A DNA stretch of 64,000 nt from positions 64,001-128,000 of the IMG/VR virus record IMGVR_UViG_3300020044_008989, one strand, 5' to 3'. A program made the translations under genes and the position numbers. The notes under the pieces are model-generated. The model was given only the letters and a program-made list of their open reading frames with translations, had not been told where the DNA came from and ran no database searches. This document shows, piece after piece, positions 26,636 through 63,646 of the stretch. Each line of letters begins with the position of its first letter. The first letter of the stretch is position 1. The stretch is from an uncultured virus (IMG/VR IMGVR_UViG_3300020044_008989). Taxonomy: Duplodnaviria > Heunggongvirae > Uroviricota > Caudoviricetes.

Positions 26636-26712
26636 GTTCCTGTAGCTCAATTGTATAGAGCGCCGTCCTTCTAAGACGGGGGTTATAGGTTAGAATCCTA
26701 TCAGGAACGCCA
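26636..26712 (+). tRNA. tRNA-Arg(UCU)
   Basis: Acceptor GTTCCTG/CAGGAAC, anticodon arm CCGTC-CTTCTAA-GACGG, T arm ATAGG-TTAGAAT-CCTAT, encoded CCA. Confidence 0.9.
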
Positions 26713-36122: not shown

Positions 36123-36349
36123 TTATTAAATTCTTCAATGTTCAAAAGCAAGAATGCTTGTTTACAGCACTTCTCCGTGATTCCTAGTTTGGAAAAGAAA
36201 GTGGCCAAATGCATTTCCCCTCCAGAAATTCCAACGCATCCATCATACCAGCCGCCGATTTTTAGCCAGTTGGCGGATTTGACGTAGGTGATGTCGATGC
36301 CAGAACGGTCTGCGTCCTCTGGTAGGTAGAGTGTTTTGGGTTTTGCCAT
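36119..36349 (-). CDS. hypothetical protein
   Basis: 4-bp overlap with the next gene. Confidence 0.6.
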   Translation of the reverse strand: MAKPKTLYLPEDADRSGIDITYVKSANWLKIGGWYDGCVGISGGEMHLATFFSKLGITEKCCKQAFLLLNIEEFNK

Positions 36350-60805: not shown

Positions 60806-61264
60806 TTACACCCCACGCTCTCTGTTGGCTTCGTTACCAAACCCCGCCAAAAAACACATGCTCAGCGTAAACATGATCGCTTGACCAAGGCCGCGTTCCT
60901 CACAAGGTTCTACTAAAAAACATAGTAATATAAAAATTAAACAGGATATTAAAATACCTATAAATAGCCAATGTTTTGTCGTCGCAAGAGCAAAAAAAGT
61001 TTTGACCATACTTCTTGATTTTAGAAAATTTTGAGCCGCCCTAAATCCTGCTTCGTCAACTATGTTATTTTTAATTTCTTCAATTTTTTGAATTTCTTTT
61101 TCCTTGAGGATTTTTTTCTGATTAATTTCTTCAAGAGCCGCGTTTTCCCTGTTGAAAGAATCGTCAATGGCAACAATTGCTTCAATAATTGGAGCGTCAA
61201 GTTTATCCTCTTGAAGTTTTGCTGCTTTTTGTTTCGCTCTCTGGATTTGGATTTCTGTGATCAT
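60806..61264 (-). CDS. membrane protein (coiled coil + 2 TM)
   Basis: TTGACA..TATAAT promoter on the - strand near 61300. Confidence 0.65.
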   Translation of the reverse strand: MITEIQIQRAKQKAAKLQEDKLDAPIIEAIVAIDDSFNRENAALEEINQKKILKEKEIQKIEEIKNNIVDEAGFRAAQNFLKSRSMVKTFFALATTKHWLFIGILISCLIFILLCFLVEPCEERGLGQAIMFTLSMCFLAGFGNEANRERGV

Positions 61265-62423: not shown

Positions 62424-62828
62424 TTAATTTACACCCCTAGCTTTTCTTGCGGCCTCATCTGCTTTTGAATTATTTTGGCGCGGCACCCATTTAAAAACAA
62501 CTTGGTTGTGATTATTTTTCGCGGCCAATAAATTTTCCCAAAGGTCTTTATTCTTCACTGGCTGGTTTTTATAGTTCTTCCAGCCATTCTTTAGCCACCC
62601 TTTAATATGATGATTTATCCCTTGAACGACGTATTGAGAGTCAGAAAGAATAACTATATCTTGCGGTTCTCCAAAATGCTTTAAAGCTTTAATCGCCGCC
62701 ATAAGTTCCATACGGTTGCTCGTAGTGTCCCATTCCCTACCAGAGTAAGATTTTCCTTCTGTTATGTAAGACCACCCACCCTCCTTTGAAGAGCAATCAC
62801 ACGATCCGTCTGTATTAATATAAACCAT
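62424..62828 (-). CDS. rnhA: ribonuclease HI
   Basis: TDGSC, TTSNRMELMAAIKAL, SDSQYVVQGI, WLKNGWK, VKNKDLW, ADEAA. Confidence 0.95.
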   Translation of the reverse strand: MVYINTDGSCDCSSKEGGWSYITEGKSYSGREWDTTSNRMELMAAIKALKHFGEPQDIVILSDSQYVVQGINHHIKGWLKNGWKNYKNQPVKNKDLWENLLAAKNNHNQVVFKWVPRQNNSKADEAARKARGVN

Positions 62829-62844
62829 CCTCTATAATAACTTA

Positions 62845-63290
62845 AAATCAGACTACTAATCTTATTCTCTCTCTTAACCTCTTACCTTTCGGGTAGTCGG
62901 GCAGTTTTTTGTCTGCTCTTAAGAGAAGATACTATTTCAGCCATTGAAGGTTTGGAACGCTTTGTCGGTATAGTTTGGCTTTCGCCAATTTGTATCCTTC
63001 GCCTTAATTCTATGCTAGGTTAACTCATAGAACACTTGGACGCTATTGAAACCGCTGGGTAAGCTGACGAATCGAATAGTCATTGCGCCTCAAGTTGGTT
63101 TCTCGCCCCTCGGATTTCTCCTCCATGCGATACATTGGAATCTTAACTGGGTTCTCCCCACGGCAAACACTTAATTCTGACTAGCCCATCATATTAAATG
63201 TCGGCAACTACTGAAACTGCCCTAAAACAGCGTTGCGGTTGCGTTCGTCCTTTTCAACTGGTCGTAAAAAAGCCTACGACTGGCCTTTGG
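62845..63290 (+). ncRNA. candidate large structured ncRNA, about 440 nt
   Basis: ORF-free; at least 8 helices, most with G-U pairs only in the + sense; TATAAT at 62833. Confidence 0.6.
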
Positions 63291-63355
63291 ATATGTCATA
63301 GTATATTACACATGGATCATCCTTTTGTGTAAAGAAAATTAAGGAACAAGGAAAA

Positions 63356-63646
63356 ATGAACGCCAAGGAAGAGCTATTGGAACGCCAAAGGTTGCACATT
63401 CGCAGTCTTTTTAAAACGCTGCTCTCAGAAATTGAGGATATTAAGGAGGATTTTGATGAGCGATATAGACTCTTACAGGATCAACTTTCGCCCGAACATT
63501 TGCCCATGCTTTACGCCGCAAACCCTCTCACGAATGACCGTTTCATGAGAATCCGCAAAAGAATCTTGGATGTGGGAAATGATGTTTCGCGGGCGATGGA
63601 TTCAGAAACAGAGAGGTATGATGTGACGTTCGTATTCAAACAATGA
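63356..63646 (+). CDS. hypothetical phage protein
   Basis: RKRILDVGND motif; GTGTAA at 63327. Confidence 0.7.
   Translation: MNAKEELLERQRLHIRSLFKTLLSEIEDIKEDFDERYRLLQDQLSPEHLPMLYAANPLTNDRFMRIRKRILDVGNDVSRAMDSETERYDVTFVFKQ

Follow-up and report, generated by a model that had tools for sequence, protein, structure and literature searches.

This report concerns a stretch without genes and the adjoining gene for ribonuclease HI (RNase HI), rnhA, in the DNA of an uncultured phage of the Caudoviricetes. The window that was analysed comprises 64,000 nucleotides (nt), positions 64,001 to 128,000 of IMG/VR record IMGVR_UViG_3300020044_008989; the source record measures 148,420 bp and its completeness is estimated at 91%. 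In the window, rnhA (62424-62828, minus strand) and a gene of unknown function for a protein of 96 amino acids (aa; 63356-63646, plus strand) are separated by a gap of 527 bp (62829-63355), which very probably specifies a conserved structured RNA in minus sense that is linked to rnhA. The protein encoded by rnhA has 134 aa, matches Pfam RNase_H (E-value 1.1e-32, 113.6 bits against a cut-off of 25.8) and falls in PHROG 531. Its putative catalytic carboxylates D7, E41, D63 and D124, which we take to be the equivalents of D10, E48, D70 and D134 of the E. coli enzyme, are invariant among 16 relatives, and the gene is the sole RNase H gene of the genome.

The gap is real and non-coding. A first-pass annotation of this DNA, made from the letters alone, had pointed to a stretch without a long open reading frame (ORF) beside rnhA, and this was confirmed: ORFs within 62829-63355 reach 44 aa at most. 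No ORF is conserved across the homologues of the gap on either strand, and close copies differ from each other by 1-nt insertions or deletions (indels). On these two grounds a protein-coding reading of either strand was ruled out, and recoded stop codons were dismissed for the same reasons. A public call of a 69-aa gene lies on the opposite strand inside the RNA of one copy (L024:2267-2476); no other copy retains it, and the call is most likely spurious.

The element was found in 11-12 contigs, all belonging to one phage clade and each with a close RNase HI gene directly downstream. By way of neighbouring proteins and DNA patterns, IMG/VR yielded the contigs L005/L002 and L007/L009/L013, which carry the element, and L004, which does not. 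A large protein collection contains five close relatives of the RNase HI, at 66-82% identity, after which identity falls to 50% or less, and 13 close relatives of the 96-aa protein. The contigs of these relatives supplied four full copies (L019, L023, L024 and L026), four partial copies (L020, L021, L022 and L032) and one strongly diverged copy, L028, which was detected by nhmmer at an E-value of 1.5e-10 and is followed by an intact RNase HI gene. Copies at 90-99% nucleotide identity are referred to below as the close group. All the close RNase HI genes (66-94% identical) have the element of about 520 bp directly upstream in the same orientation, and it is absent from relatives that have the same flanking genes but no rnhA. 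The synteny with rnhA, which the earlier annotation had singled out for checking, is therefore strict in all 11-12 contigs.

Nothing similar to the element was returned by blastn from GenBank phage records. Exact and gapped DNA patterns, run against IMG/VR and the JGI metagenomes, retrieved only two other viral contigs and one metagenome duplicate, the remaining eight metagenome matches being due to chance, and the RNA was never seen without rnhA in these searches. One genome for each of 185,579 prokaryote species was searched with a pattern made up of its two best conserved blocks, and no copy was found. At 80 more distant phage RNase HI loci from IMG/VR (37-46% identity), neither domain covariance model (see below) gave a match; the ORF-free gap upstream of the gene has a median of 20 nt there and reaches at least 300 nt at three loci. 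Judging by these 80 loci, phage RNase HI genes do not in general have a large RNA upstream. In three of the 80, ORF-free stretches of about 340 nt occur just upstream of RNase HI (at about 1137-1479 in both L075 and L077, and at about 1167-1500 in L090), and the models do not match them.

The RNA and rnhA occupy a slot between the divergent genes for the 96-aa protein and a 156-aa protein. This slot is empty in L004 and L033; in other relatives it is occupied by a 189-aa HNH endonuclease (L029/L030), by a 301-aa endonuclease VII-like protein on the other strand (L027) or by a 112-aa protein with a weak match of PD-(D/E)XK type (HSDR_N; L025). Since the syntenic relatives without rnhA also have no RNA and their slot is empty or filled by a different gene, it was concluded that the RNA and rnhA make up a single optional cassette, and that mobile nuclease genes favour the slot in which it lies. 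Two minus-strand copies of the hexamer GTGTAA, at 63311-63306 and 62434-62429, bracket the cassette. The second copy falls within the 3' end of rnhA and precedes the ATG of the 156-aa gene by 8 nt; the empty site in L004 has a single GTGTAA, at the same distance of 8 nt from the ATG of the homologue of that gene. Several minus-strand genes have the hexamer 8-9 nt ahead of their ATG (62429-62434, 60806-60811 and 63306-63311, minus strand), and it also occurs at 63327-63332 on the plus strand; it may be a -10-like element for messages with a very short leader or none. As a bare hexamer it shows no enrichment in the window, where 20 were found and 20 expected.

The RNA core, about 415 nt long, extends on the minus strand from the predicted first base, G63297, to the last hairpin at 62883. 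Nucleotide identities to the window copy were computed for this core and for rnhA. In the close group the core is the better conserved of the two in every comparison: 98.6% against 89.9% for rnhA in L002, 96.2% against 78.5% in L019, 95.5% against 79.3% in L024, 93.7% against 79.5% in L026, 90.3% against 75.4% in L007 and 90.4% against 71.7% in L023. Hence, this non-coding stretch is under stronger nucleotide constraint than the surrounding genes. The pattern is reversed in L028, with 64.5% for the core and 74.4% for rnhA; L028 is accordingly regarded as a second subtype, and it is the main source of covariation.

A structural model was derived from a MAFFT alignment, RNAalifold in both senses, an exhaustive scan for helices and inspection. 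With the raw MAFFT alignment, a model of 90 pairs gives standard pairs in 95.7% of 817 cells, and 21 of the 90 pairs have changed on both sides, compared with 5.2±1.8 in column shuffles, none of 500 of which reached 21. When the 3' partners were slid by 1-3 columns, only 1-5 pairs remained changed on both sides. Compensatory changes are present within the close group alone in helices P1, P2c, P4, P8b, P8c and P9. Covariance models were built for separate domains, leaving L028 out. The model of the central domain (R1) finds L028 at 39.9 bits (E 3.4e-6) and aligns its P8a-d and P9 exactly as was done by hand; 99.3% of the cells in this alignment are paired, and 12 of 38 pairs have changed on both sides (2.4±1.2 in shuffles, 0-1 with slid partners). 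The model of the 5' domain likewise finds L028, at 38.7 bits (E 5.2e-7), and aligns its helices as by hand; pairing extends to 98.2% of cells, and two-sided changes affect 8 of 24 pairs (1.8±1.1 in shuffles). The long-range helix P2 and the pseudoknot described below are supported by the raw alignment and by hand mapping. By covariation, the structure is far beyond chance; by folding energy it is not. The helices listed in the first-pass annotation, 11 in all, do exist where it had placed them, but only four are backed by compensatory change, namely the core of CTGGTCGTA/TACGACTGG, TTCTATG/CATAGAA, GCTATT/AATAGT and TTGGC/GCCAA. Among the others, CTCTTAA/TTAAGAG fails in 30 of 70 cells, and GAAGG/CCTTC and AGTTGG/TTAACT compete with covarying helices.

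In the description of the fold, a position p of the RNA corresponds to window coordinate 63299-p, read in minus sense. The 5' hairpin P1 (GUCGUA/UACGAC; 63261-63280, p 19-24/33-38) is paired in 100% of cells and two of its six pairs have changed on both sides (in L023 and L028). Next come CAGUU, AAGG and GAACGC (63241-63260), the 5' strands of a long-range stem by which the whole core is closed; they pair with GCGUUC, CCUU and GGCUG (62938-62960), inside the invariant block UCAAUGGCUGAAA. The stem consists of P2a (p 39-43/357-361), P2b (p 47-50/349-352) and P2c (p 53-58/339-344). In P2c, a C-G pair is replaced by U-A in L007 and L023. The L028 strands, mapped by hand, read AUAAUC/GAUUAU and ACUG/CGGU at the same spacing from the invariant P2a, so that all ten positions of P2b and P2c pair although eight have changed; by a rough estimate, this would occur by chance with a probability of about 5e-4.

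Within the stem, hairpin P3 (63204-63236, p 63-71/86-95) has a loop of 14 nt; G·U exchanges with G-C in its stem in the close group, and in L028 its strands are AAUCAAAG/CUUUGAUU. Nine bases of the loop (GGGCAGUUU, 63222-63214) form a pseudoknot with 62907-62899 (p 77-85/392-400), through nine Watson-Crick pairs that are invariant in the close group. In L028, the P3 loop and the stretch that follows a run of A have GUCGGG/CCCGAC instead of GGGCAG/CUGCCC, a hand-mapped correspondence with a rough chance probability of about 0.02 for L028 alone. Hairpin P4 (ACAUUUAAU/AUUAAGUGU; 63167-63201, p 98-106/124-132) is paired in 98.8% of cells, with three pairs changed on both sides and an internal U·G that exchanges with U-A and C-G. 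The central domain (62999-63166) is closed by P5 (p 133-137/296-300) and contains P6 (p 139-142/148-151), the variable P7, the long hairpin P8a-d (p 204-265) and P9 (p 266-273/285-292). P7, a GGA-GNRA-UCC hairpin within p 157-190, is lost in L026 and L028.

Downstream of the central domain, hairpin P10 (62975-62988, p 311-315/320-324) bears a GNRA tetraloop, GAAA in this copy and GCAA or GUAA in relatives. The 3' region (62883-62916) contains P11 (GCAG/CUGC, p 383-386/395-398) and P12 (p 404-407/413-416), a short hairpin rich in G+C. Because P11 and the pseudoknot share their 3' strand, they are alternative pairings; either of them is possible in L028 as well as in the close group, and the alternative may constitute a folding switch. 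A run of six A precedes a purine-rich tail (62859-62890, p about 409-440), in which 87% of 30 nt are A or G. The sequence of the tail is not itself conserved; it is the most purine-rich stretch of 30 nt in 7 of 11 copies, L028 included, with 77-90% A+G. Of an 8-nt unit in the tail, CTCTTACC (in RNA sense, GGUAAGAG), the window has one copy (about 62879-62890) and the 99%-identical L002/L005 have four in tandem (L005:3500-3545), and this expansion is the only difference in length between the window and L005 copies.

Two palindromic motifs persist even in the divergent L028. One is GGCC, within the 5' single strand CCAAAGGCCAG, which is invariant (63289-63280, minus strand), and the other is CUAG, within the P9 loop CCUAG (63019-63015, minus strand). 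They could be sites of intermolecular kissing or of protein binding. When complementarity between the RNA and the rest of the phage genome was sought, a single identity of 16 nt and 10-14-mers at chance level were obtained. The former, an exact identity on the same strand between 63036-63051 (3' strands of P8) and genome position 36151-36166, has a blastn-short E-value of 0.013 and is probably due to chance.

The RNA is very probably of minus sense, that is, it runs in the same direction as rnhA. In a model of 94 pairs, with L028 mapped by hand, 44 pairs show at least two Watson-Crick types, and the non-Watson-Crick combinations among 866 cells comprise 71 G·U, a single A·C and 9 of other kinds, a ratio of G·U to A·C of 71:1 that is biased because the model was chosen in minus sense. 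The informative cases are the internal exchanges between G·U and Watson-Crick pairs at 68-89 in P3, 101-129 in P4, 211-259 in P8b and 405-415 in P12. All four would be A·C mismatches in plus sense, and the helices hold no reverse case except in the outer extension of P11. The loops of P10 (GAAA/GCAA/GUAA) and P7 (GAAA/GCAA) are GNRA loops in minus sense only; that of P10 varies solely at the N position and would read UUUC/UUGC/UUAC, no known motif, in plus sense. The RNAalifold consensus amounts to -89.2 kcal/mol with ten covarying pairs in minus sense and to -83.1 kcal/mol with six in plus sense.

The opposite had been claimed earlier, namely an RNA of plus sense running rightwards through the element from TATAAT at 62833, favoured by its G-U pairs. 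The hexamer is indeed present (62833-62838) and TATAAT, TATAGT or TATATT is conserved at that spot; the extension of P1, GGGCAG/CUGCUC and CUGAC/GUCGG use G·U pairs only in plus sense, and the consensus fold is merely about 6 kcal/mol worse. With homologues at hand, however, the G·U argument is reversed, since the 71 G·U of the compensated helices become mismatches in plus sense. Moreover, the first 35 nt or so of such an RNA would be its least conserved part, its end would coincide with a -10 box conserved on the other strand, and the TGn that precedes the box at its supposed start exists on the minus strand only. A plus-sense RNA is thus considered very improbable.

Even less credence is given to an element acting as DNA, such as a recombination or packaging site or a structure in single-stranded DNA, or to a decayed gene. 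The bracketing copies of GTGTAA and the use of the slot by mobile nuclease genes would suit a DNA element, and Watson-Crick covariation by itself cannot separate RNA from single-stranded DNA; three features fit RNA, however, namely the strong asymmetry of the G·U signal between the strands, the GNRA loops and the pseudoknot. As to decay, no ORF remnant is present, close copies differ by 1-nt indels, and conservation at the nucleotide level exceeds that of the neighbouring genes, which is the opposite of what a decaying gene would display.

A putative promoter for the minus-sense RNA is located at 63303-63333 on the minus strand. Its -10 box, TAATAT (63308-63303), lies within the conserved GTGTAATAT, and 18-19 nt upstream of it is TTTACA (63333-63328), the reverse complement of the plus-strand GTGTAA motif before the 96-aa gene. 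Both boxes are kept in all nine copies that reach that far, including L028, with a variable spacer. The stretch before the -10 box varies, and conservation of the RNA starts at GACAUA, 6 nt past the box; the start site predicted in this way likewise speaks for minus sense. The minus-strand GTGTAA at 63311-63306, which had been proposed as an opposing late promoter, is present and overlaps this -10 box; it is, from its position, part of the RNA's own predicted promoter and does not oppose it.

Considering all this, the best explanation as a whole, with a probability that we put at roughly 0.55, is an optional cassette consisting of a new minus-sense RNA of about 420 nt and rnhA, in which the RNA most likely forms the structured 5' part of the rnhA transcript. 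Transcription would start at about G63297, 6 nt past the conserved -10 box. The transcript would then fold into the 5' hairpin, the three-part long-range stem closing a multi-branched core, the loop-to-tail pseudoknot, two GNRA hairpins and the purine-rich 3' tail. No conserved intrinsic terminator separates the RNA and rnhA (3 of 10 copies have weak hairpins resembling one), so that read-through into rnhA is expected and the RNA would most likely arise as a long leading segment of that gene's transcript. The RNA would act with RNase HI, either as a cis-acting control of the enzyme's synthesis or, once processed, as its stable partner or substrate. Such a cis-leader or partner mechanism specifically is proposed tentatively, at clearly less than even odds. 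We infer the ends of the transcript and its functional coupling to RNase H from comparison of sequences.

In all copies the RNA precedes rnhA on the same strand, in the 5' region of the gene, as a cis-leader would. No expression platform was found in the form of a conserved terminator or a helix sequestering the start site, and a candidate pairing of AUAGUA with the box TAnTAT shows no covariation. This conserved box (62834-62839, minus strand) is a candidate -10 element of rnhA: it stands 5-7 nt before the ATG, TGn lies ahead of it in 7 of 10 copies, and its plus-strand reading is the TATAAT discussed above. The rnhA ATG has no usable Shine-Dalgarno sequence, and the box is probably, as far as its position tells, rnhA's own -10 element for a leaderless message.

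Several points weigh against the explanation preferred here. The box 5-7 nt upstream and the missing Shine-Dalgarno sequence together suggest a separate leaderless message for rnhA, which weakens a reading of the RNA as a leader acting in cis. A length of 420 nt with a pseudoknot also exceeds by far the size of known cis-regulators. The putative promoters of the RNA and of rnhA were recognised by their conservation only, and a simple sigma-70 scan listed neither. As for the fold, the folding energy of the single sequence is no better than that of dinucleotide shuffles, either for the whole gap (z = -0.60 in plus and -1.66 in minus sense) or for the trimmed core (-0.40 and -0.14). The comparison with shuffles, which the first-pass annotation had named as a check together with covariation, therefore fails on the single sequence, and it is the covariation part of the check that is strong. 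All the copies come from one narrow clade, and many of the "independent" changes go back to L028 and three or four lineages. In L028, the pairs of P2, the pseudoknot, P5/P6 and P10-P12 were mapped by hand; the central-domain model deleted P6 there and aligned P5 with low posterior, and the model of the 3' domain (R3) did not find L028 significantly (14.2 bits, E 0.089). Because R3 misses L028, the 3' region is the least certain part of the structure, and P10-P12 in L028 are uncertain. Finally, the outer extensions of P1 and P11 contain G·U pairs in plus sense only, without compensatory support.

The box before rnhA would also agree with a free-standing ornate RNA of the GOLLD/ROOL kind, for which rnhA, under a leaderless promoter of its own, would be a mere fellow traveller. 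GOLLD and ROOL, which are large ornate RNAs found in phages and prophages, are homo-oligomers, as is OLE (PMC12286853). The RNA described here might self-assemble in a comparable manner through its single-stranded GGCC and CUAG, of which the first lies in the invariant 5' single strand and the second in the P9 loop CCUAG, both kept even in L028. Its stronger constraint relative to rnhA would be accounted for, and the phage comes from environmental metagenomes, as do the sources of GOLLD. Such independence from rnhA is difficult to reconcile with the strict linkage to one RNase HI subclade in all 11-12 contigs, where the RNA never stands alone, or with the lack of a conserved terminator between the two; in addition, the GOLLD and ROOL models show no similarity, and oligomerisation is pure conjecture. 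A free-standing RNA is regarded as unlikely, though in our assessment it ranks second, after the structured 5' part of an rnhA transcript.

A purine-rich tail next to an RNase H gene brings to mind the replication of ColE1. To our knowledge, RNA II of this plasmid is the only kind of large folded RNA that is functionally tied to RNase H. By this precedent, the tail would form an R-loop that is cut by the RNase HI of the cassette to leave a 3'-OH primer, and the cassette would be a portable accessory origin firing towards rnhA. The purine content of the tail (77-90% in 7 of 11 copies), its GGG-containing repeats, which expand in L002/L005, and the A6 run ahead of it are all consistent with this; furthermore, the pseudoknot and P11 are mutually exclusive and both covary, and it is alternative folding of this type that gates hybrid formation in RNA II. 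The absence of the cassette from otherwise syntenic relatives argues against a main origin, and the cumulative GC and AT skews have no turning point at about 127 kb of the genome, which is weak evidence as skew in phages mostly follows transcription. A simple consensus scan for promoters detected no antisense promoter or RNA-I-like unit and no plus-strand promoter inside 63150-63300. The promoter motif of the RNA is the one that precedes neighbouring genes of unknown function, and a late timing of expression would be unfavourable to the firing of an origin. We consider a pre-primer improbable. The same low probability is assigned to a bolder proposal, that the RNA and RNase HI are the two parts of a system carried by the mobile cassette, where the RNA would present or programme an RNA-DNA hybrid for its own RNase HI to cut; such cutting could, for instance, prime DNA synthesis or act on the nucleic acid of a competitor or of the host.

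As to membership in described families, Rfam 15 (4227 models, including GOLLD, ROOL, HEARO, OLE, raiA, group I and II introns, RNase P, tmRNA and 6S) gave no match at E≤10 for window positions 62600-63500 or for L028. L007 had four chance matches only, of 13-16 bits against gathering scores of 36-60. The suggestion of a large orphan structured RNA beside an RNase H gene was thereby borne out, in view of the strong covariation as well. A group I intron was rejected, as the element is intergenic, an ATG at the start of the RNA is not conserved and Intron_gpI does not match; likewise, a HEARO/omega-type guide RNA of IscB, TnpB or a RuvC/HNH nuclease was rejected, the adjacent gene being that of an RNase HI. 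No description of a phage RNA associated with RNase H was found in a search of the literature. The structured RNA, about 420 nt long, thus matches no described family and had not been described before.

Few bacterial and phage RNAs exceed 400 nt and have complex covarying folds (rRNA, RNase P, tmRNA, group I/II introns, OLE, GOLLD, ROOL and HEARO), and each has been instructive with regard to RNA function. The present RNA offers a clear genetic handle, in that it is constantly associated with one RNase HI gene and that natural relatives with an empty slot or another occupant are at hand for comparison, so that its function is directly testable. Were it to prove a partner of RNase HI, it would be the first such RNA to be described for a stand-alone enzyme of this kind, and the two would form a new RNA-protein partnership; should that be false, a new large RNA class from environmental phages would still stand. 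The immediate impact is limited by the narrow distribution (11-12 contigs in one clade) and the lack of a known host.

On comparing the RNA with known systems, riboswitches, T-boxes and ribosomal-protein leaders resemble it in lying on the same strand directly upstream of the gene, with no terminator between, and the conserved single-stranded blocks could bind a ligand or protein. Unlike these, it is 2-4 times larger, has no recognisable expression platform, and rnhA seems to own a promoter at the 3' edge of the element. With GOLLD and ROOL it has in common a length of several hundred nt, many helices and a pseudoknot, occurrence in phages from environmental metagenomes, better conservation than that of neighbouring proteins and a function that is not evident from sequence. 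It differs from them in that their Rfam models do not match it, in being smaller than GOLLD and in being strictly tied to one protein gene. A tRNA neighbourhood is also frequent for those RNAs, whereas the sole tRNA of the window (26636-26709) is 36 kb away, and none is called beside the RNA in the homologous loci, though no tRNA scan was run on them.

ColE1 RNA II is similar as a folded RNA of about 450-550 nt with RNase H-dependent biology and alternative pairings, whose promoter lies several hundred nt ahead of the putative processing region and whose 3' region is rich in purines and in A. There is no similarity in sequence or model, no antisense RNA I unit was found here, the element is an optional cassette among genes of unknown function and not a demonstrated origin, and it brings its own RNase H instead of relying on that of the host. 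The HEARO/omega RNA of IscB, the bridge RNA of IS110 and the non-coding RNAs of retrons and DRT systems are associated with a RuvC/HNH nuclease, a recombinase or a reverse transcriptase, whereas the enzyme here is a canonical RNase HI of cellular type; no guide-like variable segment was identified and neither HEARO nor any other Rfam model matched. What the present element shares with these systems is its organization: a structured RNA is placed directly upstream of, and co-oriented with, the gene of a nucleic-acid enzyme, and the RNA and the gene are inherited as one mobile unit.

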